A DNA stretch of 63,692 nucleotides, counting the filler, from Asterionella formosa (taxonomy: Eukaryota): the NCBI GenBank assembly GCA_002256025.1. It is 20 parts of 20 records of this genome, joined end to end, with 100 filler letters (N's around TTAATTAATTAA, not from the genome) between each part and the next. Parts side by side here need not be neighbours in the genome. Positions count along the whole stretch, not along the records: positions 13,057 to 41,366 come from NKIB01001251.1; 19 more parts are not named here. The stretch is one strand, 5' to 3'. This document shows, piece after piece, positions 5,599 through 63,692 of this stretch (positions are counted from its first letter, which is position 1; each line of letters begins with the position of its first letter). Position numbers and translations under genes: made by a program. A model generated the notes under the pieces. The model was not told the DNA's origin and did no database searches. It saw nothing but the letters and a program-made list of their open reading frames with translations.

Positions 5599-5839
5599 TA
5601 ATAATTTTGATAAATGCCCTTGTAATTTAAATAGTAACCCTTTTGACTACATATATTAAATTTTTATATCTATTGTTTCTTGTTTTCATTGGTATAGAGT
5701 TCTTGTATTCACTGTTGAACTTGTCCGCATCTTTGTGATCATCAATAGAGCGACAAGTGGGTCTCTTCATTGTTGTTTGCTTCTGGAAAAGTCGGTGTCC
5801 GTGTCATCCTCATTGCTTTTACTGTTTACATTAGAAGAC

Positions 5840-5874
<35 letters not shown>

Positions 5875-7363
5875 GTAACATAATTATGATTGATTGTTTT
5901 ATTTTCTATGATGTATTGATAACACTTGTGTACAGCCATATATTATCGCATTATAGTATCATTGTATCATTTTAAAATGATCATATTTTGATCAAAACTA
6001 TATCATAAACATTTTAAGAAGATGCATGAAGACAGAGATGTGATGCTGGCTAAGGCACTTGATGCATCCAGGGATGATGCAGTACTTATAGGCAAGGTTT
6101 TGGGTTCCCTCTTCGAAAGCAATCTTTCCTTCTTTTGAATCTCTGCCACTACTATTGTTATCGGCATACTTCATCATTTTTCTGGAGTAAGTTTCTTTCT
6201 TTTCTTTTCCGAAAACATAAAGTCGTCTAGTGTAAACGACGGAAGTAAGTCACGTTTCTTTTTTAATCTTTTCCATGAAATCCATTAAAAGCATGAAGTT
6301 CCATTTGGAAAGTTGTCAAAGGGCCAGAATACTATGATGTAAAACAGTGGAAGGGAAATGCGGAGCTTCTTGCGGCGCTTGTGGAGATGCAACTGGTGTG
6401 ATGGTAACCGAGTGTAGTAATTGTTGAACAGAGCACAGTGTAATATGCATGTTCCGCCAGTGTAGTGTTTACACAATACATATATAATAACAAGGAAAAA
6501 CGACACAACAATGCACGTGATGGCTGGCTGTGGAAGATACCGTTATGTGATATGCATCAATCTATATCACAATTCATATTATGGTGATGTGCATATCAAT
6601 GCATCCGCATACTTAGATCATATCCACCATATAATACTATCATATTAACTTTTGGCTTTTACTGTATATATATAAAATCGAATATTTTTTTATCAAGTAT
6701 ACTTTATGATTAATTGATCTTTCTTTTATGACGTATTGATAACACTTGTGTACAGCCATAATTTATCGTATTATAGTATCATTGTATCATTTTAACATGA
6801 TCATATTTTGATCAAAACTATATCATAAACATTTTAATAAATCATCACAGTTCTATGATCAATGCATCTTAGCTATGTGATATTATTTATTCAAATTTCA
6901 TATCATATCGAAGTAACCCTATTGTAATATCACATTATCATCTTATCGATCATTCAATGTTGATTGGGAACTGTATTCTACATCGTACTATGGAGTATGA
7001 TATTATAACACGCACTTTAGTAGCTAAGTAACTTCTGTAATGTACACAAGTCGACAGTGTACATACGCACACACTAATCATCATGTTTGAGGCAACGGAC
7101 AGTTCCAACGAGCAAGTGACGATATGGGTACCAATTTTTCCAGCAGCAAACCGCAATGATGAAGGACACTTGTCCCTCTATTGATGATGACACGGAAACC
7201 GATTTTTCCAGGAGCAAATAACAATGATGAGAGCCACTTGTCGCTCTATTGATGGCAACAAAGATTTGGACGAGTTCAACAATGAATACAAGAACAACAT
7301 CCCAAATGCGGAAACGAGCGATAGGAAAAAGAAATTGTAATCAGAATCATTCTATAAGAACTA
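5599..7363. mobile_element. Rearranged fragments of the right arm of the Plavaka-type element family
   Basis: 5599-5670 is the reverse complement of ~32630-32695. ~6110-7270 matches ~31295-32300 (for example the shared LHCALFNNYYTRLP reading). ~5880-6015 duplicates ~6700-6840. Confidence 0.85.
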
Positions 7364-15549: not shown

Positions 15550-15726
15550 GGCTAGCAGTTTAATGCATTCCATTCCATAGGAATGTTCATGTGAATTGAG
15601 TAAGAATACCGCAGAGCTCCTTACCATCACTTTTCAGGAAAGAAAGGGATCAATGCATTGCAATATGGTAACTAATGGACTGGTGTATTGAATATTGAAT
15701 ACATTAGACTACCGAAACACGAAAAA

Positions 15727-18800: not shown

Positions 18801-19081
18801 TGTTCTGTGCACGAATAAAATGTTAGTACGTGAGGGGCTTCACTTTTTGCTAATGCCTGATGAGATGATCAGTCTCATTTTGGCCGCTCGCTGCGCTAGG
18901 GATTGAGAAGGATTCCGTCTCTTTATCCGGTTGTCATGCTGTGCTTCCAGAGCCCGAATCCAGCCATCGCTGGTGTATCTGGAAATATCGTCACTTTGAC
19001 AACATCGCATTCACTATTCGATTCCTTTTTTTCCCGCTTAATTATCCTCTTTCCTCTAGCATCTCTCTCGCTTTTTATGAT

Positions 19082-19094
19082 GGGTCTTATAAAC
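19082..19094 (-). promoter_or_regulatory. Putative primer-binding site GTTTATAAGACCC
   Basis: Directly follows the 5' LTR at the point where LTR-LTR similarity ends. Resembles the copia-type GGTTATGGGCCC PBS. Confidence 0.6.
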
Positions 19095-19231
19095 TAAATC
19101 ATAATCGCTGTGTGAAGTCCGACATAGTGACTTACTTAGATAAAGATGTATTAAATGGATTTATTGTAAAAAGAGTGAGCAAGAACGAGCACTCACTTCT
19201 TGCTTTCGCTAGCAGCAAATTCAGCACAACA
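19095..19231 (-). repeat. 5' LTR of the CoDi element
   Basis: Repeat of 15727-15858. Outer boundary uncertain by ~8 bp. No target-site duplication found. Confidence 0.8.
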
Positions 19232-20600
19232 TTTGTTTTTCGCTTAAATGGATTCCTCTGTTGTCGCATAAGTTGTTATAAGTTGTTAGTTATATTTTCA
19301 AAACCAAGAAATTATGCTGTGAACAAGTAAGTGATGTATTGCCATACATCAGTCTTACTATGGATGTTTTGTTACTGAAAGGATGTCACTTACCCCTATT
19401 TTTGCATTTCCTAAACTGAAAGGATGTCACTTACACCTATTTTTGCATTTCCTAAAAATGTTATAAAACACCCGGCCATATCTGCAAGTTGCAACTCCTA
19501 AGGCATATCGGATGTGAATGCAGATTGGTTTGCTAACCGATGTATCTCCCGGTCATTTCAACTAAAGCCGCAGTTAGGCAAAGAAGGCAGAGAGTGATCC
19601 TGAACTTTCAAACTATAAATGGAATTGATCATGTGATGCACAGTCAGGCAAAGAAGTATAGAGTGATCCTGAACTCTCAAACTATATATGGAATGGAAGT
19701 GATGCACAACTTCCGGATAATTATAGAATGGAACATACAAACAAAGCACGTTTAGAATATATCAACTCTACATTTGGAGGTATGTGCATTAATAAAATGC
19801 AAGAAAGACAAAATAAATTCAACAATCATTTTAAATCGATTTAAAGTAAGTCAATCGTGATGTTTTGTTCTACTGTTGTTCTAAACATTTTCTTGTCTTA
19901 GTTGGTGTTACAGAAGATTACTTAAACAAGCTTGGTCAGTCTGAGTTTATTGGTTGGGCATGCAAGTTGTATGCGTTTGCTCAAGCAAGTTTCATTGATA
20001 GAGCAAGCAATTCCTATCACCTATGGAATGATGTTCTTGCTCGAGTTAATTTTATAGGTAGGGTCAGCTGTGGCGATCCCTATCTTATAGGGGAAAAAAT
20101 AGGGGAAATTAAATTCCTTCTGAGTGATCGAGCTAAATGTGAATTACAATCAAGATTTGTTGGTCCGGTTATTAATGCTTCGACAGAAGCATTTTGTTTC
20201 CTTGTATTAAAAGGGAAATTCCGATTACAACCTGGATGGATTAATTATAATCATTCCTTTTATTTACCTCAAGACCAATTACCTCGTTTCTGGCAGGATG
20301 TTGATGATATCGGTGGGAAACCACTTTTAAAGAAAAGTATGAGAGAGCAAAGTTCAGTGTCAGGAGGTCTCACTGATCAATGGACTGATGTCTAATTGGA
20401 ATATTTTCAACAATTGTGGTGATCTTGCATAGGATAACCGATTGGTCAGTAAAGCACCTCCAAGTCACTTTCCAAACACATTTTTTCCCCCTGAAATCCC
20501 AGAAGAGCAAATGAAGAAATATGGTGGAGATGCACTTCGACAAGATGATCTTGCTGGTAGTAGCATCAATTTACGACATTGTGTTAATATTAATAATAAT
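19232..20600 (+). pseudogene. Accessory gene A of Plavaka-type elements, copy 1 (unknown function, 5'-truncated by the LTR)
   Basis: Protein-level similarity to 25300-26180 (DWFA..KPxLGKE..ESDPEL..IWNGSDAxLP..TNKAxLxYIxSTFGGMCI; FIxWAxxLYxFAQ). GTAAGT donors at 19327 and 19846. Confidence 0.65.
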
Positions 20601-20753
20601 CACTGATATAATTTATATTTACAGCTAGCTAATTTATATTTACATCTAGCTATCATCGTTCACAAGACATTTTTTGTTCCCACCCTATTGATATCCATAA
20701 ATGCCGTGCAGGTAGGGAAATATTGTAATTATCTTTTTTAATTGCTCCGGTAC

Positions 20754-22740
20754 CTACTTGGGCTTCACTGGTTTCCTAGATTGAATAGAACCTTCTTGCG
20801 GTTTTAAGGCAGGCACAACGAACGCAGCGGACAGAATGTTGTTAAACTCAACCACACTCAGTTCAGTTGTATGGTTGCATATAGTGTCACCTTTTGCAGA
20901 AAACATACGTTTATGAGCTTTCATTTCGGAGGAACTTTTCAAGGAACGTATAGAGGCTAAAAGAATGGTGGTATCGTTCGAGAAAATTACATTTCCCCAA
21001 AGAAATCATAATTTTCCAGGAACGGTATATGATTTTGACCCATCCCCTTCTCCCAGTTCACTTCAATCCAATCAAACCATTCCCGACCAGAGATCCCAGC
21101 TTTTGAATCGTTGTTCCATTTCGGATGACATCTCAAAATAGTGCTTTGTCCTGGAGCATTGGCATGAAAGTTGACATGGTAGTAAAAATCAATCCTAATT
21201 ACAGTCACGGATTTCCCTTCATTATCAATTACACTTTTCTCTCTTTCCACCACTGAATTGGTAATGCTTTCAACACGAATAGCACCGTGTCGAAAATCTG
21301 GATGAAATACGTGTGATAATGTTGTTCTCAACATTCCATGTGATGACAAAGGTTGTTGTAAATTTGTTAAAAGAAGACCAGAAATAGTCCATTGACCATT
21401 TATGGCTAGTGCAGAAAATTGAACTCTGGCAGGAAGTGATGGTAATTTTTTGGTAGTTCTTGCTTCCTTGTTAGAAGGGGAAGAAATGACTTTCATTTTG
21501 CATCCAAAGAGATAATTTCTAAGCCATCATTCAATAAATCCTTTTCGGAATAGTTATCAAATACAATTTCGCGTGCGAGGAAAAATTGTTTTGTTTCGTA
21601 GGATCGTATCAAAATATCATGCTTGAGACGATGAAGTTGTCCGTTTACGCGTTTACTGGGACGTTTCAATTTATCTTTCAAAAAAGATTCCTTCCAAATA
21701 GCCACCGAAAAAATTAAGAGGTGAACCAAAATTTTGAATCAAATGAGGATAATGTTTCATGCCATGGAACTTTGTCATTCTTAATCAAATTTGAGATGCC
21801 ATCTCCCTCTGAGGACCATCCAGTGTCTTTGTGACAGACATGAACCTTTTTCTTTTTTCTTTCAAAGTTATCACACAAGTTTCAGTTTATTGCGGAAGGA
21901 ATAAATTTTCATTGATGGAAATACCTAACCATAATAGCAATGTGAAGTCTTTTTCAAGGTCGGTGTTCTCAGGACCTAACATTCCTCCCATTGAGAAAAT
22001 TGTTAGCAAACATAGACCAGGGATTTCTTGGCCAGACATCTTGGATAATGCGGTCAATCCTGATCGATAAGATAGTCTTGGTATATTACAATCACTTTGT
22101 CTCTCCAGGTGGCTATTGATGTATCTAGCATTTTTTCAAATTGAAGTTTTGCAAACACATTTCTTGTACTAGAACATGTAGGTGGTCGTAACTTTTGCCA
22201 GTGAAGGTACTTTTGAAAATTGGTTTCGTATGTCAATACTTGTTATGGTGACATTCGTTTTTCTGGCCCGTTTTCTCAAACTTGGTTCTTGGTCAGGATC
22301 AGTCAGGTCTACTGGAGGAAAACCCGTCTTGTTCGCCTCAGAGTAGGTGTTTGGTACTTCTGGACAACTTTTTTTCATAAAAAAGGATTCCCAATCTTTA
22401 GGAATAGGTCGATAATTATATAATGATTCCAAAATGTACTTCAATAGGCCAAGTAAAAGTTGATGGAGCACCTCGAAAGGTGTTGCGCCAAATTCTCCTT
22501 CTGGATCACCGCCAAAGTAATGTGTCAATAATGCTGGGATGATTGGAATATGGGATATGACGCGGTACCACTCATTTCGTGTTGCGAACTTACCATCATT
22601 AGTCTGAGTCACACCAAAACATATTTGGTAATTTTCCATCTGGATAAGTTTCTTTATCCAAATATTGCTTCAGAAATTTATATGCATCGCCAACTTCACG
22701 CAGTTCACATCCTATATCCGGATTGTCAGCGTCTTCTGTA
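20754..22740 (-). pseudogene. Plavaka-type transposase, copy 1 (C-terminal part, frameshifted)
   Basis: GATPFEVLHQLLLG, SGLTALSKMSGQE, TKFHGMKHYPHLIQNFGSPLNF..LKRPSKR, LRCHPKW..WFDWIEVNW: motif order typical of Plavaka transposases. Cut at 22740 by the neighbouring TIR. Confidence 0.8.
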
Positions 22741-22763
22741 CGTCTGCAAATAAAAAGTATCAT
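22741..22763 (+). repeat. Left TIR CGTCTGCAAATAAAAAGTATCAT
   Basis: Inverted match to 32755-32777 and 37923-37945. Confidence 0.8.
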
Positions 22764-24468
22764 GCATATAGGATCAAGGGTATTGTACGCTAAGTGGCAC
22801 AAGATTTTCGTAAAAAAGATAATTTTTGGATCAAAAATATGATCAAGGTATCTTGTAACTATGATGATTTATTAATATTTTACCGACCTTGAAGTATAAT
22901 GATAATAAGAACATTATCATCACACAATGTATATAAACTGATCAACAACATTTCCCATCAATATCATAAACCTTCTCATATTATTTTTACTTCTCGTGAT
23001 CGCCCGATGTAAATTATAACTTTAACGTATGCTAAAACCAGCTCAACTCTATGCTATGATATGAATTGTTTCATCGTAAATCTATCGTAAACATGATCAT
23101 AATTCTAATCACAAGCATTGTTCAAAATAGATTGAAATGGATCATAATTTAACTATCAAATTAAGCAATGCTATCTATTATTCTACATGCCAGCGACCCA
23201 ACGTTTCTCTCTCTACTTGGCTCAATGTATATTGTTCCTGTCTCACCCTTTTCTTCCTCTTTTCTGAATCTTGTGCCAAGCAATGCCTTACTAATGTTGT
23301 GTCTCTCTCCCTGCTGTTAGTGTCATTGTGAACTCGCCGGCTATTCCGTTTGATCAGTTTTATTGTCCTATGCATGCAGTTACAGTAACAATGAGAAGGA
23401 ATGATTTGTTAGCTAGTCATGTTACATTGACACAAGAACACGCCATTCCATTGTATCCTCTTGCTTGCTTCACTTACCACAGCCAAATCAATGCAACTGA
23501 TGCATAAGTCTGTAATAGTAACTTGTCAGTAAATTCTTGAATAAGTAAGTTTTGGGTATCCAATGTTGTGGAATAAAACTTACCGGTTCATTTTTGTCAG
23601 CTTAACTTTGAGAGAAGGTAAACGATTTGTCAGTTTTGATCCAGCAGAAGTGAATAAGTCCAACGAGCGACAAGAGCACTTACGCAATTTGGTTTTGTTT
23701 TGTTTTACATTGGTGCTCCCCAACAAGCGAAACGAGCTGTTGAATCAACTGAGAAAAAAGGAAATGTGGCTGCGTTTAGTTAACAATTTGTTGTTGTCCT
23801 GCCTGTCTCCCAACGATTGTCATCCAAGTACCACATTGATGGCTTCATTATATTACCTTAAACATTCTCCATCCTTCGAAGGCGCAATGTGTCGAAGTCA
23901 CAATGTTTTTCGTTATGTATTGCAAAAAATTCCTTTTCTTGTCATGTGCTTTACTACGACGTATCTTTTCATGAAGCAGCAGGCGTTGTTTGTTAACATG
24001 ACAGAATGATTTCAAAAATATATATGCCATGAATATAGTAATAAAATTTGTAAATATATATACATAATACATTTATAAAATTCAAAGGCGCTCTCGATAT
24101 GGAACATCTGATATGGTTGAAATGATCATACTCGCATATACATAATTCAAAAATACTCAATGCACTATTTGTCCATTGTTTTCCACGACTATGTGTACCG
24201 GTATTATTTCTGAAATTTGTTTGCATCGATATTTTCTACGTCCGTTGAAATTATTTATTTAGACCATTCAATTGGTGTAAGTCATAACCGACAGGGTTTT
24301 TTCCTGGTAGCAAATTGTTTAAGCCCCTTTTTTGGGCGGGAGCTCTTCATGTGTACCTGTACATCATAAACTATGACAATAACAATAAATCATATATAGT
24401 ATATACAGAGTACCAGTAACAGGTAGTAAGTGATATACTGGGGGTAGTTGGAGTAGTATACTAGCAAC

Positions 24469-24715
24469 AGAACACCATATGTTCAGTACTGTTGCTACTG
24501 CAGCGGGACAGTAAATCATCACAATCGTATGATTTTTAAACCAAAAACTATTAGAACACCATATGTTCAGGACTGTTGCTACTGCAGTGGGACAGTAAAT
24601 CATCATAGTTTTAGGATCGTATGTATGTAAAACTAAAAACCAATAGTCGGAGTAATAAGCAAGCAACAGAACACCATATGTCTATGACTGCTGTTACTGC
24701 AGCGGGACAGTAAAT
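24469..24715 (+). repeat. Three copies of a ~48-bp motif AGAACACCATATG..ACTGCAGYGGGACAGTAAAT
   Basis: Copies start near 24469, 24553 and 24668. A single copy lies at ~8345-8392 in the homologous contig. Confidence 0.85.
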
Positions 24716-24771
24716 GAATTTAAGATCATCGAACTTTAAGGAAGACAACGACAACAGTTATCAAGTAATAC

Positions 24772-26182
24772 AATGTCTTCAAGAAACCATAAAGAGGTTC
24801 ATGGAAACAAGCGACATGTGGCAAATACTGCCGGTATGGAACAAAGAAGCAAGTTCCAAAATAAGTTAATAAAAAAAAAAGCGAACAGGCGATTATCCAA
24901 AGCAACCCAATCGGCGATTGGGAGACGTTGGGGGTAATACCCCATTGTCGATGGGGACACCATCAGCTACTAGTACAAAAGATCCCGTAATTGATACTGA
25001 CAGCGATGATGACGTTTCTACTTCAGTTATTGATAAAAGAAAATTGGCTCCTGTCGATGATACCATTAATAACTCCCGGATGGCGATGGACAACATGGTA
25101 CCATATCATAAATTTTCTATTCGCACGGACCAACAAGTACATGACAACCTGAGGGAAAAACATTTTGTACTTGCCAAAGGATTTTATCAATTGGTCAATG
25201 AACTCAATCACTACAAAGGTCGTAATTCGGTTCAAAACTCGTCAATACAAGGTTATCAAGACTCTTCAATTTCAGCAGCTTTATCAGAGCGTCGTTCTTG
25301 CTTAACTAAAATTGAACCAACAATTGTCGCAAAGGTTGTTATTTTAATTTGCTTTCAAGACCAAGAAGTTTTTCCTGTGAACATGTAAGTTTGATGTTAT
25401 AGTTTGTGAATTGCAGGTACTGTATAACAGAATATCAATCAAATGTGCTTTTTTCTGGTCCCAAAAGAGAATCAAACATCCCGCCCTGCCTATCTGGTCT
25501 AAGTAGTATGAAAGGGATTGGTTTGCCAAATGTTGCCTAACTCGGCTATACACAGTGAAACCGGAGTTAGGCAAAGAAGTGGAGAGTGACCCAGAGCTTG
25601 CCGATTTCATATGGAATGGTTCTGATGCACTACTTCCGATGAATCAGACCATTGAATGTACCAACAAGGCATGTTTAGATTACATCAAATCAACATTTGG
25701 TGGCATGTGCATTAAAAAGTCGAGCGAAAGAATGTCAAAATGTATTGAATAATCAATTTAAAGGAATGCATCTTAGGTAAGTTCTTGCAGGGAGATGCTC
25801 CGAAAGCATGATGTTTTGAGTCGGTGATTATATTCTTATCAAATATGTTTCAATTTAAAAATGCTAACATAATTCATGACACACCAGCTGGTCTAACAGA
25901 ATATAGCTAACTTCCAGACTATGGATATTGATGACTTTATTAGGTGGGCATTGACGCTTTATCGTTTTGCACAGTCAAAGGACATTGTCAAGGAATCCTA
26001 GTACTCCCACCACAAATATCATCTACCCACACTCATACTTCTCATTTCCCAACGTAAGTGGAGATGATATGCATCAATTTGTTGAATCACTTCAACCAAA
26101 TGTTCCTGAAAAGAATATTGATTATTATGACCGCATTAATCAACGGGACATTGATGACGATTTTGATTTTGAATGGATCTAA
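24772..26182 (+). pseudogene. Accessory gene A, copy 2 (unknown function, intron-containing)
   Basis: ATG at 24772; ORF pieces 24918-25388, 25555-25752 and 25967-26182. Donors at 25385 and 25777 are at positions equivalent to those in copy 1. Confidence 0.65.
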
Positions 26183-26599
26183 TAGAATCCAGCAATGCAT
26201 ACTTAGTAGTTACATAATAATTATCGTAAGTGTGAGACTTCTACAATGCAAGCAATATCATAGATGATAGGAAAACATGGATTCTGCTCTACACTACTAT
26301 TACTATCAGTGCCGCCTGTACTACATATAGCGGTATACCTACATTTTTACTATGTTGGAGTGATAATTTAACAACTCTGTATTTTCCAGCACAGCATGTT
26401 CGAAGTGGTGCTCAATTTATTATTATTTTTTATTAATTCATTTTCATTCTATCCTTTTCATATCCTGACTTGTTCATCATTTGCAATTCGCAATGTCTGT
26501 GCGCACATTGCGATGGTGTTATCTGTGTAACTACAAATTTTGGAAGAACAAATCCCCATCTGAGTCTCACAATCGAAATTGTAGCAACCGTGTTTTTTA

Positions 26600-29328
26600 T
26601 GCATATGGTCACTGTCGACATTGCATGCAGGAACATCGAGTTCCTGGAATACATAGTGAAACTATGTATTGCGGTAGTGCGCGCATCAAATCATTCAAGG
26701 AAAGAAGTTAATGATGGCAGTGTAACTGCTGCAGCATTTAGGGAGATTAGACAAGAAGAGATTATGTGTCCTATCCTTGAATCAAATGACCACAATCATC
26801 CACTTCATGAGGACAGCGACGATTCAGTTTATAACAATATTCAGTCACAACAGGACGAACAATTGAGACTAAAAACTCTCCAAGGGTTGAATTCAGAAAC
26901 CATGCAATATCGCACTGGCTTTCTCCCTGAAAATGCAATGGAAATGCCCCTTCCTTCTCAATTTCAACTTCCAAGTAAACAGTCTCTAAACATGCGCGCA
27001 TCCAATTGAATTAGAACTCATGTTATTCCTCAACGTGAATTACTATCTTCCACCAGTTTACTTTGATCATCTAATGAAATGGCTGTTCAAGGCAAAAGCA
27101 ATGAAAATTTTTGACGATGGAAGGCAGGTGTCAAGCTCCATCCTACCAGACTTTGAAAAAACGCAGCATGGATATTTCATTTCCACCAACATTAGTGTAT
27201 TTCATTTCCACCAACATAAGAACTGTTGACCAAACAAATAAAGATTGATAACAATTCAAATATGATCATCCCACGCACCCTTTATTATTTCGAACCAGTA
27301 CAGCTCATGGCAAGCAGGATTGCTACTTGATTCCGATATCATGCAACTTTTTGTATGTCACCCACAAGTGAAACTTACAACTTGTGGAGAACGCATGCAT
27401 ATATTTCCACCAACATTAGCTGGTGGTCAACTGTTGACCAAACAAATAAAGAGTGATAACGATTCAAATATGATCATCCCATGCACACTCCATTTTTTCG
27501 AACCAGTACAGCTCATGGCAGGCAGGATTGATACGTGATTCCGATATCATGCAACATTTTGTTTGTCACCCACAAGCAACATTTTGTATGTCACCCACAA
27601 GTGAAACTTACAACTTGTGGAGAATACATGCATATATGACGAAGTAACTTCTGCGACTTGGTTTGAAAATGCATTCAACAATTCTCCTGCATCAGAAAAT
27701 GGAGTGTTGAAGGCAAGACAGGGTGTTTATTTGTTGCCTTTAGCAGTTTTCAGTGATGGTTCACCTATTGATAAACAAATGAAACATTCCAAGCATCCGT
27801 TTTTTGCTTACAATGTTAAACTGAACGTTAGAAGGAAGGAAAAAAGTTGATGGATGGCAATTAGTATCTCTTTTGCCAGACATTGAAGTCAGTAATCTGT
27901 AGAAACAAATGAATAATAAGTTATCTGGTGATGACTTGTCCTTAAGTAGACTCAAATTATATCATTCTGTTACAGGATTTCTACTGTCGCCTTTCGAAGA
28001 GCAATCCAAACAAGTCATACGATATTTGGGTTCATGGTCTTGGCCTTGGTATGACAAAAGTTTATTTCCAGATTGGAATGATCATGGGTGATACAGAAGA
28101 TCACAATAAAATTTGTCGCTTCAGGGGTGGTAATGGATTATATCGACGATATATTTGTCGTGATTGCCTGGCTGGTTTCAACTGAGGATGCTGATAATCC
28201 TGATATTGGATGTTAACGTCGTAAAGTGTCAGATGTTAAAAAGTTTTTAAACAAATTTCTTGACAAAAATGCATATCCCGATGGAAAATTGCCATGTATC
28301 CCACCTGAGTATTGTGTCTCCCAATCTAATGGCAAATACGCAACAGCAAACGAGTGGTGCCGTGTTTTATGGCATAATCCTATTATGCCTGCACTAATAA
28401 ATCATTTTTTTGCTGGTGACTTCGAAAGATTATTTGGTGCAACTCCATTTGAGGTTCTTCATCAATTACTACTTGGAATATTTAAGTTTGCACATTTTGG
28501 AATCTTTGTACAATTATCGGACTATCCCTGAAGAATGGACATGTTTTTTTAAAGAAAGAAAGAATCCAGATATTCCAGATAACATCTCCGATCATAAACG
28601 TAACACTGCAACAACAGACTCTGCTTTTCTTGATCAAGAGCAAAAGAAGAAACGGGCAAAGACCAAAACGGAGCGACACACGCACCAGTTATTAAAAATA
28701 TCTACACTGGCAAAAATCAAGACCCAACACTTGTACCAGCACCAGAAATTGCATGTATTTTCGAAACTATACTTCGAACAAAGTGCTAGATAAAACAATA
28801 GTCATTTGGAAAGGCAAAGCGATCGTGATATTCCAAAATTGTCATACAGATCTGGGATGACAACTTTGTCGAAAATGCATGTCAGGGCAAGAAATTCCCG
28901 GATTATGTCTGTTAACTATTTTTTCAATAGGTGGAATGATGGGCGGGTTCAGAGAACATGCACCTAGAAAAGGATTTCACATTGCTGTTATGGTTATGTA
29001 TATCTATCAATGACACTTTATTCATACCACAATATACATCAACATGTATTGATTTTTTAGAGGAAAGGGTGAAGAGATTTATGTCAGTTACTAAGATTAT
29101 GCTTGGTCCCCAACCGGAAATGATATCTCAAATTGGCTTAGGAATGGCAAAATTTCATGGAATGAAACGCACATAACCCTCATCTGATTAGGAAGTTCGG
29201 ATCTCTACTTAATTTCTTTGGTGGATATTTGGAGTCTTTCTTGAAAGATAAATTGAAATGAGCGACCCAGTCAGCGTGTCAACGGACAGACAATTACATC
29301 GATTAAAGCATGACATTTTAACAAGGTC
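26600..29328 (+). pseudogene. Plavaka-type transposase, copy 2 (N-terminal and core, frameshifted, 3'-truncated)
   Basis: YDEVTSATWF, LLPLAVFSDGSPID..SKHP, GWQLVSLLP, RLKLYH..LLSPF, MIMGDTEDHNKIC, GATPFEVLHQLLLG, AKFHGMK, RLKHDILTRS. Start boundary approximate. Confidence 0.8.
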
Positions 29329-31500
29329 CATTATTTCTTCTTTTTCACTCCCAAAGAACCTAAGATGGTCCTTCTCGTTTCGTCCGAAATTTTGCTTCTC
29401 CACTTTTCAACTGCAGTTCGATATGAGTCTGCAAACGTCTTCAATTTGATTCCAGAAGGGCTATCATCAGATACAAAATGTTCTTTTTACTTTTTGACAA
29501 TTTTGATGCATCCAGAAATTTGGCCAAGAGGTGCATGATTATACCATTTGAAGGAGCAAGTTTGTCATTTCTTTGTTGTATCATGGATTTTACGTAGACA
29601 ACTTCATCCTTCTTGAAAGAAGAGTTGCAAGGAGGAACACGTCCAAATACTTCGTTCAACATTTTTAAATCTAAATAGGATGTCAAAATTTTGTCGATAC
29701 AAAATTGAAGAACAGTTACTGTATTTCCAACTGAAACATATCCTCACGAGAATTTGTCGTTGTCACTTGAGGCCAAACTGTTCCAAGATGAAAGTATGGT
29801 GACTTGGTTGATGGGTCAGGTGTAATGGATAAGAAATCGTCTGTTCGATCTGTTGCTGTCACCTGACGTTTTAAAAGTTTCCAGGACTCAGTCTCCAAAC
29901 GGAAATATGCCCGTTTGCCAAGAAATTCGGTTTTGCCATTCCTCTCTAATTGCAATAGAGTTTCCAACACTTTCATAATTGTAAAAGATCACATGACCAT
30001 CTACTGTCATCTTCTGGTTGAAATAACATTGAATCATGTTCAGTGTCCATACTGATCTGCAATGGTGCTTTGGTGCCAGTATAGAAAGATTCCGAGAACC
30101 TAATTTCTTCAGGTATATGGGATTCTTGTGGACGATAGCTATCCTGTATCGGTGCATAACAATTCCAATTCTTTTCTGCATCCGGTAATGATGCAGTACT
30201 TAAGGGCAAGGTGAAATACTTGATCATAATGTTCATCCAAACTTGCATCTTTCCTGGGTCACAGACTTGACATAATCCATCATTTATAGCAAAAAGATAA
30301 TGCACAAAATGGTTGTTTTCCTCCTCATCTGATCTTTTGCAATACACAATTAGCACATAGTTACTTTTGTGATGAAGTGGATGACAATCACCTTGGTATA
30401 TATATGGATTGTTATTACCCTTTTCTGGGTTCTCATCAAGATCAAATATAACCTTTACATCACTTGGATGAAGTTCATGAATTATATAATGGATCATAGA
30501 GGTAACTGTTTCAAGGTCCCAATATGCAAGATCTTTAAAATCTGAACATGATTTTTAGATACCTTTGACTCCATAAAATACAGAGGCGTAATTGCTGTAC
30601 AAATCTTTCCACAATTTTAGTTGTCCATGCGATTTCGGCAAACTCAAGGACTATGCCGTTTGCTTTGGCATAATAACTACAAGTGTACAAATCTTTCCAC
30701 AATTTTAGTTGTCCATGCGATTTCGGCAAACTCAAGGACTATGCCGTTTGCTTTGGCATAATAACTCTACACATTTCACATGCCGACTCTTCACAAAAGT
30801 AGCTGCCTCCGGGATTGTTTTCAATGATTTTACAAAGAAATCCTAATCCATTTCTTCCATGTTCGATTTGGAAAAAGATTCAATTTTGTGTTTCTGACTT
30901 TGTTCCCTATTCAAAGCATCAACTGCCTCAGCCAGCACCACATCTGTGTCTGCATTGATCTTCTTGAATTCGAGGTCTTGATCTAGTTCAGGCTTTTTCT
31001 TGAATATCTTTTCTTTTAGAAATGCAAAAGTTTCTCTGCTTTCATGATGTTCATCTTGATGTTTTGCAACTTTTCAACCATTTCTATTCAGAAGTGATGC
31101 ATGTCTCCCACATTTCCACCATTATTTTCATTCATCGCATAATTTTGTTCATCAAATGAATGAGAATCACTGAGTTCTTCTTAATTATTAGCAATTTCGG
31201 GAGAATGAGGAGTAAAATACGACACTGGATGGTGGAACTGTGACTCTGTACGAATAGAGTCTTCATCCACAAAGACCAACTGTTTGGATTCCTCTTTGAA
31301 AGCAATCTTTCCTTCTTTTCAATCTCAGCCACTATTGTATCGGTTGGCATATTTGCTTCCTTTTTTCTGGAGTATTATGAATCTTTTCAAATTCATTTGA
31401 TCTTTGAGTGTACTCAAAGGAATCTTCGATTGATTTCATAACTTTCTTCATCTTCTTTCCCGAAAACCTTAAGTCGTGTAGTGTAAACAATGGAAGTAAC
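29323..31500 (-). pseudogene. Large accessory gene with candidate Ulp1/SENP-like (C48) protease domain (core ORF 29973-30497)
   Basis: Order NNHFVHYLFAI..QVCDP..LFQPEDDSRWSC fits the His-Asp-Gln/Cys arrangement of Ulp1 peptidases, though Q-C spacing is longer than canonical. Charged N-terminal region. Second copy at 37946-38975. Confidence 0.45.
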
Positions 31501-32754
31501 TCTCGTTTCTTGTTTGACTGATCCTTTCCATGAAATCCATGAAATGCAATTTGGAAAGTTGTCGAAGGGCCAGAAGACGATGATGTAAAAAATTGGAAGG
31601 AAAACGCGGAGCTTATTGCGGCGCTTGTTGAGGTGGAACTGGTGTGTTGGTAACCGAGTGTAGTAATTGTTGAACAGAGCACAGTGTAATATGCATGTTC
31701 CGCCAGCATAGTCTTTACACAATACACATGCTGGCACAGACGACACAACAATGAACGTGATGGCTGGTTGTTGAGGATACCGGTATGTGATCTGCATCAA
31801 TCCATATCACAAATCATATTATAGTGATGTACATATCAATGCATTCGTATACTTAGATCCTATCCACTGTATAATACTATCATATTAACTGTTGACTTTA
31901 ACTGTATAAATTAAACGACAAACATATATATTAATTGCCATACTTTATGATTGCTTGATTTATATTCTATGATGTCTTGGTAACACTTGCGTACATATTT
32001 TATCGTATTATATTGTCATTGTACTATTTTTACATGATCATATTTTTATCAAAATTATATCATATACATTTCATGAAATCATCATAATTTTATGATCAAT
32101 GTATCATAGCTATGTGATGTACTTTATTCAATATTACGTATCATACTTTGATGATGTATGGTTCGAACGAGCAAATGATGATACGGTACCAATTTTTCCA
32201 ACGAAAGAACTTGTCTCTCTATTGATGAGGATGACACGGACACCGACTTTTCCAGGAGCAAACAACAATGAAGAGACCCACTTGTCGCTCGATTGAAGTG
32301 GACGAAAAGGATATATTTTTTGTGCGCTGTGTGCGGAAACATTACAATCTCGAATGGTTTCTTCTCTCCTGTAAACTCTTAATTGAATGATTATGAACAA
32401 AGCTTCACTGCACATGACGATTACTCGAAGATATAATGATCACTTGACCAACAAATTGAAGACGTTATCGCAAACATTCATTCCGCTTGTCATTGCTAGT
32501 ATTTCGTTGTTGTTTCAAAAACCGGAGTGATGACGGATGGAAATAACGAGCCAAATTACATTACTTGAACTGGTACATTATCCTACCAAGAAATTCGAAA
32601 ACAGGAATCAAATAGAAACAATACATATAATAATTAAATATATGTAGTAAAAAGGTTTACTATTTAAATTACAAAGGCATTTATCAAAATTATTAGATGA
32701 TATAACGAAAAATTATGATCAGATGATCACAATCCTATGATGCATCATGGAAAT

Positions 32755-32777
32755 ATGATAGTTTTTATTTGCAAACG
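32755..32777 (-). repeat. Right TIR (reverse complement CGTTTGCAAATAAAAACTATCAT)
   Basis: 21/23 identical to the left TIR. Gypsy gag sequence begins immediately after. Confidence 0.8.
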
Positions 32778-35700
32778 GCAACAAGAGTTTGAATTTAAAT
32801 CATACAAAGACTTCAGACCATTCGATTCGTTCGGTTCTCGCTTACTTCGAGAGTCAACAATCGTTTAAGGATCAAAACAAGCATCTTCCCAACAACAGTT
32901 TTCAAACAATCACACAGAACCGTCTTCGCATTGCTGAAGGCAATCTTGCGATGCGTCAAGAAAACGAGCGTGTCAGTCGTCAATTCTACAACGATAATTT
33001 TACTCCAAGTGGTCGTGGAAGGGCGTGTGCTATTGTCAATGCAGCCGGACGCGCATGGGATCGTCAGGCAACTGTTCGTCATCAAGCTCTACAAGCCAGT
33101 CGTACGTACTATGATTATCGCGGTCCTTGCCCGGTAAATCCTGAAGGTGTACATACTTGGGGCAATTGTTTCCAGAATCCTCGTACTCAAGGTGGTCGAG
33201 CAGGTCGCATGGCTGGTCGTCAAAATGGATATGGTTTTCCAGTTTCGGTAGACGAGGACATTTTGGTGGTCGTGGAGGCGGTGTACACAGCAATCCTACG
33301 GAAAGCTATCATACTGACACTGCTAACCCTGTGCCTGTTCCACATGCTCATATGTTAAATACATTGGGTCATAATACTCGTCCATCCGGTTGGGGTACCG
33401 TGCCACGTCCCGATCCTACCAAGAATACATCTGCCCAGGAAATTTCAGTGGTCACGAACCTTCCTGCTGGTCAGATAGTGACTTTTGTCCCTCCTACACA
33501 ACAGCAGATTGCTGATCGCCATTCCAGAGGTATGTGCGATAAGAGCGATGTCATTTATAACGACTCGTTGAGTATATCTCACGTTAGTAATCACTTGAAT
33601 AATATTGTTGATTTACAGGTTGAATACACTATGGATACCGCTGTTAATGTAACGCGGGATATATATAACTGTATTGATGGACATGATGTTCCACATACAT
33701 ATCAGGGCCCAATTCCGGTTTCCTGTTTTACTTCTAAGGATATATTAACATCAATTGATTTGATTCCGATGTCCCTTTTAGCGCCAAAATTGGTGGATAA
33801 TATACCGATACATAAAATACTACGAGTATTATTCGATAGTGGAGGATCATTATCCTTAATACATGAACGGGTTATGCCTCAAGGTATTTCTTTGTCTGAC
33901 GAGACTTCCCAATTAATACATACCATAGCTGGTACTTATTCATCTCATACCAGTGTCATGCTATATGACCTGATTTTAACAGAATTTAATCGATCCGCTC
34001 ATATTTTACAACAAAAATGTCAAGTCTTTAATGGTCAATGCACATTTGATGTTATTTTAGGACATGATTTCCTCCGTCAAGTTGGTTTAACCATTGATTT
34101 CGTAAATAACACCATGTCCTGTATGGATAAAATCGTTCCTATGCTTCCTTTCACATTCTTTGATGATAGAGAACGTTTACAAGATGTATTATTATATTTC
34201 GATGCACCTATGATTGTGTAATCTTCTTATGTGCTGGAAATTAAAGCTGCTGAATATAATTACGTAAATATTGATACAGTGGTGGATAAACAAATACATT
34301 TGACAACAATACAACGATCATGTTAACGATCTATATTGGTTAAATATCAAACATTATTTGATGGCAAATTAAAAGTCTATCCTCACAAACAGGTACATTT
34401 GGAATTATTATCAAATGCTGTCCCTCGTCATCAATGAGCATATCCGGTCGCTCATATTCATTTAAAAGTTTTCAAAACGGAATTACAACAATAATGTGAT
34501 ATTGGAGTCCTCCAAAAATGTGGTGCTTCTAAATGGGCATCTCCCACCTTAATTATTCCAAAAAAGGATGGAAGTGTCCGATGGGTATCAGATTTTCGTG
34601 AACTTAATAAAGTCATCAATCGCAATATATATCCTTTGCCTCGAATACAAACTATTCTCACTAAACGTGCTGGATATGTATTTTTCACCAAATTGGATGT
34701 TTCTATGCAATACTATACTTTTGCATTGGAAGTGGAGAGTCGAAACTTGTGTGTTATTTCAACTCCATTTGGTTTATATAAATATTTACGCCTCCCTATG
34801 GGGGTGAAACAATCATCTGACATTTCACAAGAAACTATGGAACAGATCCTTAGTGATTTAGATGATGTGGAAATTTATATTGATGATGTGGGTTGTTTTT
34901 CAATGAATTTTTCAGATCCCCTTCATTTATTGGACACTATTTTTCATCGTTTACAGATAAATGGTTTTACAATTAATCCATCTAAGTGTGAATGGGCAGT
35001 CCAAGAAACAGGTTGGTAAGGCTATTGGTTAACTCCTAATGGACTGAAACCTTGGTCTAAAAAGGTCCGAGCATTGATTAATATCATGTCTTCACCTACC
35101 AATCTTAAACAAGTTCGATCATTTCTCGGTGCTGTTACTTACTATCGAGACATGTTTCCTAGAGGATCGCATGTTCTTGGACGACTTACGGATTTGATTG
35201 GAACTAGTCCCTTTGTCTGGTTACCTATCCATCAACAAGCTTTTGAAGAAATGAAAGCATTGTTAGTTGCAGATACACTCATGCGTTATCCTGACCATAA
35301 TCTTCCTTTTCATATCTTTACTGATGCCTCTGATTATCAATTAGGGTCCGTCATTATGCAAAATGATCTCCCAGTTGCTTATTATTCTCGCAAATTATCT
35401 GCTGCTCAAAAGAATTATACTACTATTGAAAAAGAATTACTTTCGGTGGTAGAAACTTTCAAAGAATTTCGCTCTATGTTAGCTATTGGGCGCAGTTCTA
35501 CATGTTCACACTGATCATCGAAATCTTATTTATAATACATTACATACTCAACGTGTTCTACGATGGAGACTTTACATTGAAGAATACCATCCTACTTTTC
35601 ACTACGTGAAAGGGACTGACAATGCTATTGCAGATTCCATATCTCGCCTCCCGAGACATGAGTCTTTGGTGGAGGATGATATTGATATTGGACCGAAATC

Positions 35701-37159
35701 TCCAACATCAACTTCCACTTCTACTTTTTCAATTGAATTAGATGATGAACCTCTGCTTACATGTTTCCTTAATAGTCCCATCTTGACAGACAATATTCAA
35801 TATCCTCTGGATTATAATTTAATACATGATAGACAATTGCTGGATATACAATTGATTCTCAATCAACAAACACATCCATTAAAATTTCCTTCTATCAATT
35901 TTCATGATATATTTTTAATATGTTTTGTGAAGAATCCAGGAGATACTTGGTGTATTGCTATTCCTACATCGTTATTGGATCCTATTATTAATGGGTATCA
36001 TCAGATGTTAGCTCATGTGGGTATGACAAGAATAAATGCTACAATTGCTACACATTTTTATCACCCTACATTGAAAGCAAAAGTGGAACATATTGTAAGA
36101 GTATGTGAAGCATGTCAACGTACAAAATTACCTGGTACTGGTTTTGGTGAACTTCCACCCAGGAATGCATTATTATTACCATGGTCAGAAGTCGCAGTAG
36201 ATCTAATTGGTCCATGGAAGATAACAGTGGCTGCTCAAACGATTGAATTTCGTGCTCTAACTTGTATTGACACAGTCACCAATTTAGCAAAAATTTCACG
36301 TATCACCAATAAAACATCAGAATATATTGCAATGAAATTTGAAAATGATTGGTTAGCCAGATATCCCCGTCCAGAACGTTGTATACATGACAATGGAGGT
36401 GAATTTTCTGGTGCTCCTTTCTTACACATGTTAGTATTGAATGGAATCAAAGATGTGACTACCACAGTAAAGAATCCACAAGCAAATGCTATCTGTGAAC
36501 GTTTACATAAATCTATCAGCAATAGTCTACAAGTTATGTTAAAGGCTTATCCTCCAATCAATGAATTTCAAGCCCAAAATATTGTGGATACATGTTTTGC
36601 AGCTGCGTCATATGCAGCTCGAGCTATTATTCATAGTATATTACGTATTTCACCAGGAGCATGGGTTTTTCAACGTGATATGATATTAAATATTCCTTTG
36701 ATTATAGATTTACAATTAATACATCAACGTCGACAAGTGATAATTGACGAATGTTTACGTCGTGCTAATTTCCGTCGTCGATCTTATGATTACAAAGTGG
36801 GTGACGAGATTTTAATTTTATTGGATAATCCTACTACTTTGGATGATCGTGGACGAGGTCCTTATACTATTATTCAAGTACATGCCAATTGTACAGTTAC
36901 TTTTCAACGCACTATGCATATTACCGAACGAATTAATATTCGTCGTATCAAACCTTTTCATAGGTAAAAGGTTTTCCCTCAAGTGTGGGAGAGTGAGCAA
37001 TCCTGCACATCGATACAAATATACGTAGAGTTAGGGTTATGTCAAATATATCGGAATTCAATAATGAGAGAACTTGACTAACCCTCATTCTATACTTTGA
37101 TGTCAGTTCAGGAAATGAGTTTTTCATAAGGATTAATTAATAAGCTCATATATTCAACA
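32778..37159 (+). mobile_element. 5'-truncated Ty3/gypsy LTR retrotransposon (decayed gag-pol)
   Basis: gag CPVNPEGVHTWGNC, protease LFDSGG, RT YIDD, RNase [21 protein letters not shown], integrase HHCC + DLIGP..DNGGEF..ANAICER + GPY (PR-RT-RH-IN order). Stops and frameshifts present. Purine tract 36981-36993, then TG at 36994 (putative 3' LTR to ~37159, unconfirmed). Confidence 0.93.
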
Positions 37160-37922
37160 AATACTACTACTTCTAGTTAGATACTTCACCAGATACCAAT
37201 CTCACCTTGTTTGTACGAGACGTGTTATTGCACACTCAACATCACCTACAGGTACCGGTACCAACGTCACCTTGCTTGTTTGTACGAGAAGAACGTGTGA
37301 TTGTTGCGTACCAGGTAACTGGTACCGGTACTCTCAGCCACTCCCTCATCTTAACCCTATCCCTGTGATTGACATGATTTAAATTCAAATCAATCGAATA
37401 CGGTACGCACGCTTTCTTACAAAAATATCAGTGCAACATTCATACGGCACTGGTACCTGGTATTAGGTATCCCAACGATGGACATGATTTAAATTCAAAT
37501 CATCAAATGTCTACGTATGTTTACTTACAAAAATATCTGTACAACATTTCGGTATCTGCTGTACAACAACAATAGATATAACAAACTCACACAATATAAA
37601 CAAGTACCAGTGCTCACACAGAAGGATTCTCATACATGTATATCCATTTAGCTGTATATGTAAATATATGGAAATCTGTTCTCTACAATAGTAAGGTACG
37701 TATATGTACATGTACCCATGTACAACTGTCCTATTGAAACACGAATGATTCAAATTCAGTTGCTGATGGTTTGCAGCCAGTGATGGTAAAAGTAAATACA
37801 TACATTTATGTTTATACATATAGTTTGTAATATTCTCTCAGACAATAAATATTATTCATATTAGATGATAAATCGAATTGATATGATCATATGATTGCCA
37901 TTATAAGATGCATCACACGAAT

Positions 37923-37945
37923 TTGATGTTTTCTATTTGCAGACG
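37923..37945 (-). repeat. Third TIR-like terminus (reverse complement CGTCTGCAAATAGAAAACATCAA)
   Basis: First 12 nt identical to the left TIR. Preceded by a TGATCA-rich tract and followed abruptly by mid-gene sequence. Confidence 0.7.
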
Positions 37946-38975
37946 AGAAAAGAATTTCATTGTAAAATCATTGAGAACAAACCCGAAGGCAGCTACTTTT
38001 GTGAAGAGTTGTCATGTGAAATGTGTATAGTTATTATGCCAAAGCAAACAGCATTTTCCTTGAGTTTGCCAAAATCGCATGGACAACTAAAATTGTGGAA
38101 AGAGTTGTACACACATACCCCACAAGATATATGCAATTACGCCTCTGTAATTTATGGAGTCAAAGGTTTTACCAAAAAACCTTTTTCAGATTTTAAAGAT
38201 CTTGCATATTGGGACCTTGAAACAATTACCTCGTCTCTATGATCCATTATATAATTCATGAACTTCATCAAACTGACTGGTGTAAAGGATATATTTGATC
38301 TGGATGAGAACCCAGAAAAGGGTAATAACAAACCATATATATACCAAGGTGATTGTCATCCACTTCATCATGACAATATCCATGTGCTATTTGTTTATTG
38401 CAAAATATCAGATGAGGAGGAAAACAATCATTTGTGCATAATCTTTTTGCCATAAATTATGGATTATGTCAAGTTCGTGATCCAGGAAAAGATGCAAATT
38501 TGGATGAACATTTGGATCAAGTATTTCACCTTGCCCGTAAGTGCTGCATCATCCCTGGATGCACCAAGGAACTGGAATTGTTAAGCCTCCAACCGTTGAT
38601 AAATAAAAAATAAAAAAATAAATGATAATGATAACAATATAGTTTCACATACTATATTGGTTATTAGGATGTTTTCACAAACTACAATTTCCTTACAAAT
38701 GATGACATTGGATGATCCCAAAGGTCGATTTTTTTCTTTTTCACTCCCAAAGAACCTAAGATGATCCTTCTCGTTTCGTCCAGAATTTTGCTTTTCCACT
38801 TTTCAACTGCAGTTCCATATGAGTCTGTAAACTTTTTCAATTTGTTTTCAGAAGGACTATCACCATTTACAATTTTTTTCAACTTTTTGTCAATTTTTAT
38901 GCATCCAGAAATGTGGTCAAGAGGAGCATGATTATTGTTAAAAAATTCATACCGGCAATGCGATCTATTCCACAT
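37946..38975. pseudogene. Rearranged second copy of the Ulp1-like accessory gene
   Basis: 37946-38583 (+) matches the reverse complement of ~30155-30840. ~38720-38940 matches 29323-29545 directly, so the two pieces are mutually inverted. Confidence 0.8.
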
Positions 38976-61814: not shown

Positions 61815-63692
61815 TATAGAAGGGAATAGTGNNNNNNNNNNNNNNNNNNNNNNNNNNNNNNNNNNNNNNNNNNNNTTAATTAATTAANNNNNNNNNNNNN
61901 NNNNNNNNNNNNNNNNNNNNNNNNNNNNNNNCTGATTCTTGCAACAACGACAAAGCAGCCATGTCGAGAGGAACGAGATTTTGTGATAAAATCTTCATTT
62001 TTCGTTCAAGTCATCATATGTCTTCGATGAATCATCATCTACATTGCACAGTATGTTCGTACTATGCAATCCGTTAAGAGCTTGAAAAGAAATCCAATGA
62101 AAACGAAATGGCTCATCACACAAGACGAATATTTCGGGTTTGTCACCAGAGCATCGGTCAGTGTTACAACCTCAATCATAGCTAGTAAACAACATCCATT
62201 ATAGAACAGCACAATCTACTTCTCCGTAACATCGTCTCTCTAACAAGAACGTAATACATCTACAATTGAAACGCAGCATAGCAGGCGATATGCACAAAGA
62301 AGCATTAGACTGTGCCGTCTATTTATAGTAACAGAGTGATTCTGGTTTCGTAATTTTCATGTCTCATTAGATTTTCTTTGTCATCGTACTACTAGTTCCT
62401 TACCTTTGAAGACAGGAGCGTAGCTATTCTTTGATGTATCTGGAATATTTCAATGGATGGCAGCAGTTGGATTTAGACACAAACCTCGACAAAAGCACTA
62501 GTACCTTGTCGATGTTCATGAAAAGCGAGACACTTTGCTTGGCCTATCGCCCACCAGCCAGTCTATACTGCAAAAATGCAAGAAGCACAAGTTGAATGAC
62601 CATTTATGGATTCAAGTTTCAGTAGTGCAACAATGTAAAATATTAGAAACCGGAAGTCACATTTCATCTAATTACGGTTTTCATTAGCTATACTAGTATT
62701 GATTGAGAGGAAGCAAAGGTAGAATGGCTGCCAAACGGGCGGGGGCAAACACAGAGGAGAATCCTACTAATTTTTCTTCCCAATGATCCCAGTGCCTTCT
62801 TGAATGTCACTTGCAACAGAAAATGTAGAACAGCCGCCATGATCTGTTGATTGTTGCTTTATGGTGCCACTAACCAGAAATCTCAATGAGTTGCTTGTTT
62901 CTTGACTTGAATGCAAAAGGGATCGAAACCAGTGGAAAAATCAAAACAAGGGAACTAAAAATGGTGCTCTGCAAACATCATCAGGACAATTGTGAAAGAG
63001 AAATGAAGGTTCTTGGGAGGAGAAGTAAAGGGATAATTGCTTCTGCTGGTCTTGCGGGAACAAGAATAGATTGACCCAAACAATGTTGACAAATAGGTAC
63101 CTACGGGAAAAGGAAGCAATGCATTCAGCATCATCAATCTATACACTAGCCTGCGCCACCTGATGTCGTCAGTATAGCTACCTCGACTTCATCAATGAAG
63201 AAGTCAATGGGTGGAGCATGTGAGGAAAATCGGGGTTGAGGTTTTCTTGACGCCAACGTCGACCTGCTTTGCTGAACTCCTTGCAGATGAAGGCATTGAG
63301 TAACCTGGGCCTGTGAAGCCGAAGGATAAAGAAAAATCTACGACAAGGGTGGTGAGATAGTGTTTAGGAGGGGGGAGCAAAAGATATCATAGCTGAACGC
63401 ATTCGAAACTTCTTGTGTAGACAATAAATGGTGACATGCCATGGCTGCTCTTGGCTGACAGCTGCCAAGTCAAGTACAAACACAACGAGCGAGGGTGCAC
63501 AAAAGACAGTCCATGACTGGCTGATAATTAGTTGTGAGACTCACCATTCTCCAATGGGGTGGACTTTGATCATTGCTTCGTTCAAAGCACAATCAATTCG
63601 AATGCTGTCCAGTGAAACAGCCAATGAAAACAATTGTGGCAAAAAAGCGCAGAACAGATCAAGAGCGAGATTTCATAGGAATTAAAATAACA

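Follow-up and report, generated by a model that had tools for sequence, protein, structure and literature searches.

The DNA analysed here is a stretch of 63,692 nucleotides (nt), filler included, which joins 20 parts of 20 records of the Asterionella formosa genome (GCA_002256025.1) and is hereafter called the window. Positions 22741 to 32777 are occupied by a copy of a repeated DNA element that is closed on both sides by nearly identical inverted ends and contains, from left to right, a non-coding block, a short array of repeat units, an accessory gene (gene A), a decayed transposase gene and a second accessory gene, named ORF2 (ORF, open reading frame), which converges with the transposase. 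This order follows in outline the one proposed in an earlier note on the same DNA, which had read the leftmost block, its 'region B', as a decayed leftward region; in that block no coding capacity was found. The features of the copy, in window coordinates, are as follows.

22741..32777, plus strand: the element copy, decayed and probably internally rearranged, bounded by inverted ends; 10,037 nt.
22741..22763, plus strand: left terminal inverted repeat, CGTCTGCAAATAAAAAGTATCAT, found by motif search; the end and its interior are common to five metagenome contigs.
23571..24635, no strand assigned: non-coding block, comprising 'region B' and the start of the repeat units, delimited by BLAST.
24445..24715, plus strand: three 72-nt units (family D8) that each contain an inverted repeat (AGCAACAG...CTGTTGCT), directly upstream of gene A.
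~24773..26180, plus strand: putative accessory gene A, with an ATG start, a frameshift in an A-run and GT..AG introns placed by eye; the 3' limit is uncertain.
26493..29329, plus strand: predicted Plavaka-type DDE transposase gene, decayed, delimited by tblastn of two relatives (P0026 and P0113), translations and motif alignment.
29346..31550, minus strand: accessory gene ORF2, convergent with the transposase; tblastn of a relative (P0103) covers its amino acids (aa) 1-716.
32755..32777, minus strand: right terminal inverted repeat, identical to the left one at 21 of 23 positions.

The reverse complement of 32755-32777 reads CGTTTGCAAATAAAAACTATCAT and agrees with the left end, CGTCTGCAAATAAAAAGTATCAT, at 21/23 positions, exactly as the earlier note had stated. 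A search of the 63.7-kb window for the 16-mer CGTYTGCAAATAAAAA with at most two mismatches returned three matches (0.15 expected), at 22741 (+), 32777 (−) and 37945 (−), while three matches were reached in 0 of 100 shuffles. With a 12-mer of the end and one mismatch allowed, six matches were obtained where 0.71 would be expected; the exact matches among them, three in number, were again 22741, 32777 and 37945. The two terminal 400-nt stretches of the element hold three copies each of TGATCA, compared with 0.36 per 400 nt window-wide.

Sequences from outside the assembly were used to see how these ends behave in other copies. A run search with 22441-32440 returned 24 runs, labelled as algae, freshwater and marine metagenomes; the best of them (X1, labelled algae metagenome) contains 0.74 of the sampled words, and contigs from X1, X2, X8 and X20 were aligned to 19001-39000 at ≥85% likeness. 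In X1, 61 contigs break into foreign sequence exactly at 22741, with the loose part before it, and 76 exactly at 32777, with the loose part behind it. The mutual agreement of these loose parts is 0.38 and 0.37, respectively. At 31287, 31343, 31740 and 37128 the agreement of the loose ends is 0.71-0.83, and by this high agreement they are shared internal structural variants.

Metagenome contigs were further scanned with the 22-nt end pattern CGTYTGCAAATARAAANNATCA. Thirty loci were returned, 14 of which are related to the element according to BLAST, the remaining 16 being unrelated pattern matches. Behind the end, five loci have left-type interior (L018, L021, L022, L025 and L026), eight have right-type interior (L002, L005, L007, L009, L010, L020, L029 and L030) and one (L001) matches the sequence inside the third end, at 37945; none of the 14 holds both ends. 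At all 17 ends, three in the window and 14 in these loci, similarity starts at the C of CGT, with chance run-on of the BLAST alignments by 1-10 nt past the end in L026 (to 22731), L022 (to 22739), L029 (to 32778) and L001 (to 37946). The outer 40 nt are on average 26% identical between ends; the inner nt 22-61, which are free of the pattern, reach 69% identity among left ends (ungapped) and 88% among right ends. The check suggested in the earlier note, namely whether matches to the inverted repeat mark sharp borders, thus had a positive outcome, with shared interiors on one side and unrelated flanks from the terminal CG onwards. Sixteen of the 17 ends open with CGTCTGCAAATA and one with CGTT, it being understood that positions 1-22 were imposed by the pattern and that their invariance in the loci arises by construction. 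The preceding base is A in six cases, T in six, C in three and G in two. At position 4 of the right end, T occurs in the window copy only and C in 8/8 right-type metagenome ends; the inverted repeat of the family is therefore 22/23, the T being private to the window copy. The inverted ends are genuine transposon ends of a multicopy family.

The copy number of this family is very high. In X1, the depth summed over contigs climbs from 20,112 in the bin 21669-22335 to 1.59 million in the bin 22336-23002 and to 2.9-3.7 million further inside, and 628,903 of the 9,513,803 X1 contig records map to 19001-39000, a stretch that also includes a very abundant Gypsy-like repeat. The earlier description of a multicopy family with its own inverted repeat is borne out by these contigs, by the metagenome loci and by the recurring pieces in the window described below. 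Within the element, the arms are about three times as deep as the transposase region, which is the pattern expected of deletion derivatives. In a public protein fragment (P0005), a piece of transposase runs straight into 29314-29538, and one X1 contig omits 26680-29948; both joints look like signs of transposase-less deletion derivatives.

The predicted transposase gene is heavily damaged. Residues 3-720 of the 1023-aa relative P0026 align with 27002-29329 in tblastn, residues 129-801 of P0113 also align with the window, and the N-terminal part (26493-27001) was placed by eye alone. The alignment with P0026 passes through ten or more in-frame stops, several frame changes and a 200-nt tandem duplication (27204-27404 / 27403-27637), and translations of 26989-29330 likewise have many stops and shifts. 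The alignment breaks off at residue 720 of P0026, with about 300 C-terminal residues absent, and the gene stops at 29329, less than 20 nt from the 3' end of the convergent ORF2. The window copy is too broken for a direct Pfam test, and its Plavaka kinship is transitive, via relatives only, because its own pieces have no Pfam match.

These relatives were reached with an 81-aa piece (27605-27850) searched against a library of 1.84 billion proteins, which gave 23 proteins at E ≤ 1e-3, each 69-201 aa long. Pfam was run on 15 of the 23: the Plavaka family PF18759 was listed at E ≤ 1 for ten and nothing for five, and two of the 15, P0008 (41.0 bits) and P0013 (29.3 bits), lie above the gathering cut-off of 26.3 bits. 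One of the ten, P0024, is a false relative and really a glycosyltransferase. The longer relatives found via P0019, namely P0025, P0026 and P0027, match PF18759 with 71.6, 59.3 and 62.0 bits, respectively, and two uninterrupted cluster relatives, P0076 (1191 aa) and P0113 (1102 aa), with 58.9 and 58.7 bits. At E ≤ 1, PF18759 was the sole Pfam family listed for P0076 and P0113, and P0113 matched neither PDB sequences nor PHROGs. Several motifs of the window copy align with those of the relatives: FSDGSPIDK (FDDGS.IDK in the relatives), GDTEDHNK, CRDC and PFEVLHQ. The C(2)C motif after GDTE(D/Q)HNK is CRDC in the window and CRNC and SRDC in the relatives, the catalytic residues being assigned by eye; an H(3-4)H motif could not be placed with confidence in the alignment of the window transposase and its relatives. 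The intact relatives thus suggest a transposase of Plavaka type, as had been claimed from the sequence; the claim stands through P0113 and P0076, which match PF18759, and not through the window's own frames.

The gene facing the transposase, ORF2, is a real accessory gene, to judge from its homologues. An uninterrupted 720-aa relative (P0103) maps on 31550-29346 of the minus strand in several frames, the window copy being broken by frame changes and by a perfect 88-nt tandem duplication at 30596-30766 detected with Tandem Repeats Finder. A 193-aa piece (29973-30554, minus strand) has 45 homologues at E ≤ 1e-3, none of them with a Pfam domain. By eye, the relatives present the ordered series H...D...Q...C (NNHFVHY, RDPGK, QPEDDSGWSCG), which is the order of clan CE peptidases. 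The earlier label of a protease-like gene found no support from any tool: no Pfam peptidase, C48 included, matched P0103, P0102, P0028, P0029 or P0048, and none matched the 18 members of the ORF2 alignment A2 at E ≤ 10; the ORF2 profile found no PDB chain at E ≤ 10; P0103 had no match in PHROGs; and ORF2 had no usable match in the ESM Atlas. The AlphaFold2 model built from the 18-sequence alignment, with a mean predicted local distance difference test (pLDDT) score of 38.7, was too poor for a fold search. An identification of ORF2 as a Ulp1/SENP-like cysteine protease (Peptidase_C48) is consequently unsupported by Pfam, PDB profile, structure model and Atlas.

Gene A appears to belong to the family as well, the sole evidence being the recurrence of one exon: 25516-25740 is 68% identical at the protein level to 19523-19817, which adjoins and faces a second transposase gene in the window. 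No family match was obtained for gene A with Pfam on its ORF pieces, the Atlas or PHROGs; its best Atlas score, 0.82 to unnamed clusters, was not used, shuffles reaching that level one-third of the time. The repeated motif of about 48 bp that had been noticed upstream of it is the core of the 72-nt unit, present in three copies at 24445-24715. This unit family (D8) has four copies including 8321-8392, and the DNA folds of the units have z values of -3.0, -2.6, -0.5 and -2.1. The non-coding block 23571-24635 is common to 7466-8427 and 10128-11090 at 88-94% identity, and neither copy of region B holds a conserved ORF or an ORF with a family match.

BLAST of the interval against the window finds recurring pieces at 5599-7252, 7466-8427, 10128-11090, 19642-19835, 21611-22739 and 37859-38935, so that the homologous pieces reported earlier are confirmed. 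The further family members in the window are listed below.

5599..7252, no strand assigned: rearranged pieces homologous to 31283-32695 (right arm and start of ORF2); the expected terminus site is N-masked and unreadable.
20659..22739, minus strand: C-terminal part of a second transposase copy, diverged, which directly abuts the element's left end.
37859..37945, minus strand: third terminus (CGTCTGCAAATAGAAA...), of right type and belonging to a sister subfamily, found by motif search and through L001.
37949..38935, no strand assigned: second ORF2 copy, in rearranged fragments (BLAST, tblastn).
61932..63692, minus strand: interior of a further variant of the family, which shares 95% identity with metagenome contig L010.

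The second transposase copy aligns, at 22618-20659 on the minus strand, to residues 339-1023 of P0026; its nucleotide identity to 28181-29319 is 69%. The sister-subfamily end at 37859-37945 has the same 12-nt tip and an interior about 75% like the right arm, and 430 nt of this subfamily's interior are shared at 73% with L001 (888-1322). Positions 9-2022 of L010 match the last 1.8 kb of the window and L010 then continues into a right-type terminus; the family is therefore represented, just past an ankyrin-repeat gene, by a further variant whose interior differs and whose terminal part is shorter or lost in the window. Two of the region B copies, together with 72-nt units, are held by the two arms of an inverted duplication (7464-9227 versus 11092-9328, 99.6% over 1765 nt, centre near 9277), which could be a true palindrome or an assembly fold-back artefact.

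Considered as a whole, 22741-32777 is very probably a defunct member of a cut-and-paste DNA transposon family with a very high copy number, whose transposase is of the Plavaka lineage, within the EnSpm/CACTA-Mirage-Chapaev-Transib (CMCT) group. We infer that autonomous members would encode a DDE transposase free of introns, some 1100-1190 aa long, which would bind the 23-nt terminal inverted repeats, and probably also the TGATCA-rich subterminal 400 nt, and would excise the element and reinsert it. Gene A, upstream, and the 720-aa ORF2, convergent with the transposase, would travel as passengers, all genes moving as one unit, and shorter deletion derivatives that retain the ends would be mobilised in trans. 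Of this picture, the ends, the high copy number, the decay of the copy, the Plavaka kinship of its relatives and the link of ORF2 to a right end are observed, whereas the binding sites, the joint movement of the genes, the way of insertion and any part played by the passengers are inferred.

Several observations weigh against this interpretation. The Pfam search that the earlier note had recommended for 26600-29328 gave no Plavaka match, either from ORF pieces of the window (16 at E ≤ 0.01, 12 at E ≤ 10) or from the three whole frames of 26989-29330 read through with X at stops. X1 is possibly the source sample of the window, so it shows further copies within one source and not an independent organism. 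The tips of the metagenome ends owe their constancy to the pattern, as said above, and no independent contig connects a left end with the transposase. In the pieces at 6099-8427, region B comes immediately after right-arm sequence, which departs from the order in the element, and the ends agree with neither of the published Plavaka end types. No target-site duplication surrounds 22741-32777 (left ...TGTA, right GCAA...), and the flanks are unrelated repeats: on the left the truncated transposase copy, cut at the position aligned to 28181, and on the right a Gypsy-like repeat that starts to resemble its other copy (46497) precisely at 32777/32778. These two flanks were therefore never contiguous before the insertion, and the window copy may accordingly have arisen by recombination between two insertions or by a join made in assembly. 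Of the single multi-gene unit of about 10 kb that had been envisaged, the true ends hold good, whereas the copy itself is not an intact unit, its transposase being cut at 29329 and both its flanks being other repeats.

As to the insertion site, the consensus of the X1 loose ends, ...ACAT on one side and ATGT... on the other, is compatible with a 2-bp AT duplication within ACATGT; this is only a hint, because the agreement of the loose ends is below 0.4 and the base at −1 is mixed. Among the loci, no left-type flank could be paired with a right-type one; the flanks of L025 (...GGGGG) and L029 (GGGGG..., same strand) are candidates for the two sides of one site.

The alternative that best survives these data accepts the family and its ends as real and regards the 10-kb interval as a chimera of two insertions, brought together by ectopic recombination or an assembly mis-join; we hold this to be rather unlikely. 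Recombination between copies or an assembly join are the simplest readings of unlike flanks without a target-site duplication, and the abrupt end of the transposase at 29329, where ORF2 also ends, as well as the possible assembly fold-back at 7464-11092, can be read in the same sense. Both halves of the interval are, however, alike in X1 depth and in numbers of loose ends, the adjacency of transposase and ORF2 is seen again in P0005, and the interior bears no mark of a join apart from the truncation at 29329.

Considerably less probable is that the ends belong to a non-autonomous or unrelated element into which the Plavaka transposase and ORF2 were inserted separately, in nested fashion. The dense repeat nest that the window represents, the roughly threefold deeper arms compared with the coding middle, and the missing independent link between left end and transposase would suit such a history. 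Deeper arms are, on the other hand, the usual sign of deletion derivatives of one element, and the 16-mer search with two mismatches finds no inner pair of ends. Moreover, L029 joins a right-type end to ORF2 on one metagenome contig, tying the two together independently of the window, and the end of the sister subfamily (37945) likewise adjoins ORF2 fragments. Finally, a chance similarity within repeat debris, for which the shortness of the 23-nt match and the AT-rich sequence might speak, is refuted by the shuffles and by the 14 outside contigs and 137 loose-ended X1 contigs that break exactly at the ends, and its probability is practically nil.

Other repeats surround the Plavaka-type element in the window. 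The Gypsy-like retroelement at 32778-37128 (plus strand), whose ORFs were read by eye as gag, protease, reverse transcriptase and integrase, starts exactly at the right end of the transposon and has an equal X1 depth; an inverted partial copy lies at 45193-46497, and no long terminal repeats were recognised in this retroelement. A Copia-like fragment at 15723-19211 (ORFs at 16125-18868 on the minus strand, by eye) lies directly left of the region of the second transposase copy and is flanked by 123-nt direct repeats, 15723-15845 and 19091-19211 (92%). Eight 21-nt units like TTTCTGTATGATCAATCAGTA, each with TGATCA, follow one another at 40162-40326 and could form the subterminal array of another, related element. 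A 297-aa ORF at 56383-57276 (minus strand) resembles, by reading only, a PIF/Harbinger-type nuclease/transposase.

Plavaka was reportedly first named by Iyer et al. in 2014. As in the fungal elements, transposase relatives of the copy described here score above the PF18759 cut-off. According to the available text of Kojima (2025; PMC12730594), Plavaka is placed in the CMCT group with EnSpm, Mirage, Chapaev and Transib; PlavakaA has TGT..ACA ends and a 2-bp target-site duplication, PlavakaB has CATCA..TGATG ends and a 2-3 bp duplication, and a C(2)C motif is given for Plavaka and the wider CMCT group. The CRDC after the GDTE motif of the window transposase corresponds to this motif as there described. 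The termini found here, CGTCTGCAAATA...TATTTGCAGACG, differ from those of PlavakaA and PlavakaB and from the CA..TG usual in the CMCT group, as far as these are set out in that text. With fungal Plavaka, in the descriptions at hand, the element shares the layout of a cut-and-paste element bounded by terminal inverted repeats and able to carry an accessory gene; it differs from them in having no TET/JBP gene, its own accessory genes being without a family match.

The element resembles EnSpm/CACTA elements in its DDE transposase of the same wider group, its subterminal repeats, its multi-gene layout and its abundant deletion derivatives, and differs from them in lacking CACTA termini and in that PF18759 is the sole family listed for P0076 and P0113 at the threshold used. 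Among the CACTA and Mutator elements of plants are some with a Ulp1-like (C48) protease gene. The H...D...Q...C order seen by eye in the ORF2 relatives recalls these elements, whereas ORF2 differs from their protease gene in having neither a Pfam C48 nor a PDB profile match.

A parallel in architecture comes from red algae. The available part of a preprint on Bostrychia moritziana (bioRxiv 10.1101/2025.02.11.637652) describes Plavaka elements of 17-19 kb with three accessory genes, PAG1-3, and tandem inverted-repeat arrays, which make up one third of the genome in mostly degenerate copies; the domains given for PAG1-3 are DNA-methylase (PF01555)/SET (PF00856) and ParB-like/2-oxoglutarate (2OG)-oxygenase. 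Like these giant elements, as they are portrayed there, the present one occurs outside fungi, measures at least 10 kb, combines a transposase with several accessory genes, has tandem inverted-repeat units beside an accessory gene, and has proliferated massively into mostly degenerate copies. It differs in its size of 10,037 nt against 17-19 kb, and no Pfam match to PF01555, PF00856, ParB-like or 2OG-oxygenase domains was found in the ORFs of 22741-32777 or in P0103. Because the Bostrychia preprint describes such elements, large multi-gene Plavaka outside fungi are already known, and Plavaka is also reported, in the accessible text of two further papers (PMC13519894, PMC12633428), from chlorophytes, streptophyte algae and a moss. 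The earlier note's picture of a mainly fungal lineage and of an undescribed architecture is on these sources outdated.

New here are the sequence of the ends, two accessory genes that have no known relatives and, possibly, the host group; of the Plavaka papers listed, none deals by its title with diatoms or stramenopiles. We tentatively consider, as a possibility that we would not yet favour, that the family is a third Plavaka lineage with CG-starting ends and its own accessory pair (gene A and the clan-CE-like H-D-Q-C gene ORF2), and that it has multiplied to become one of the most abundant repeats in a freshwater or marine microalga that belongs to neither fungi nor Archaeplastida. If so, and if the host is a diatom, stramenopiles would gain their first described Plavaka family, whose two conserved transposon-borne genes would be candidates for anti-silencing or helper roles. 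Plavaka was first seen as a fungal oddity and, in red and green algae, is described in the sources at hand as able to drive genome expansion; if different ends, different passengers and a very high copy number are combined in another kind of alga, the range and variety of the lineage would be wider still. For genome annotation, the exact ends and the protein models provide the means of masking a large repeat family.

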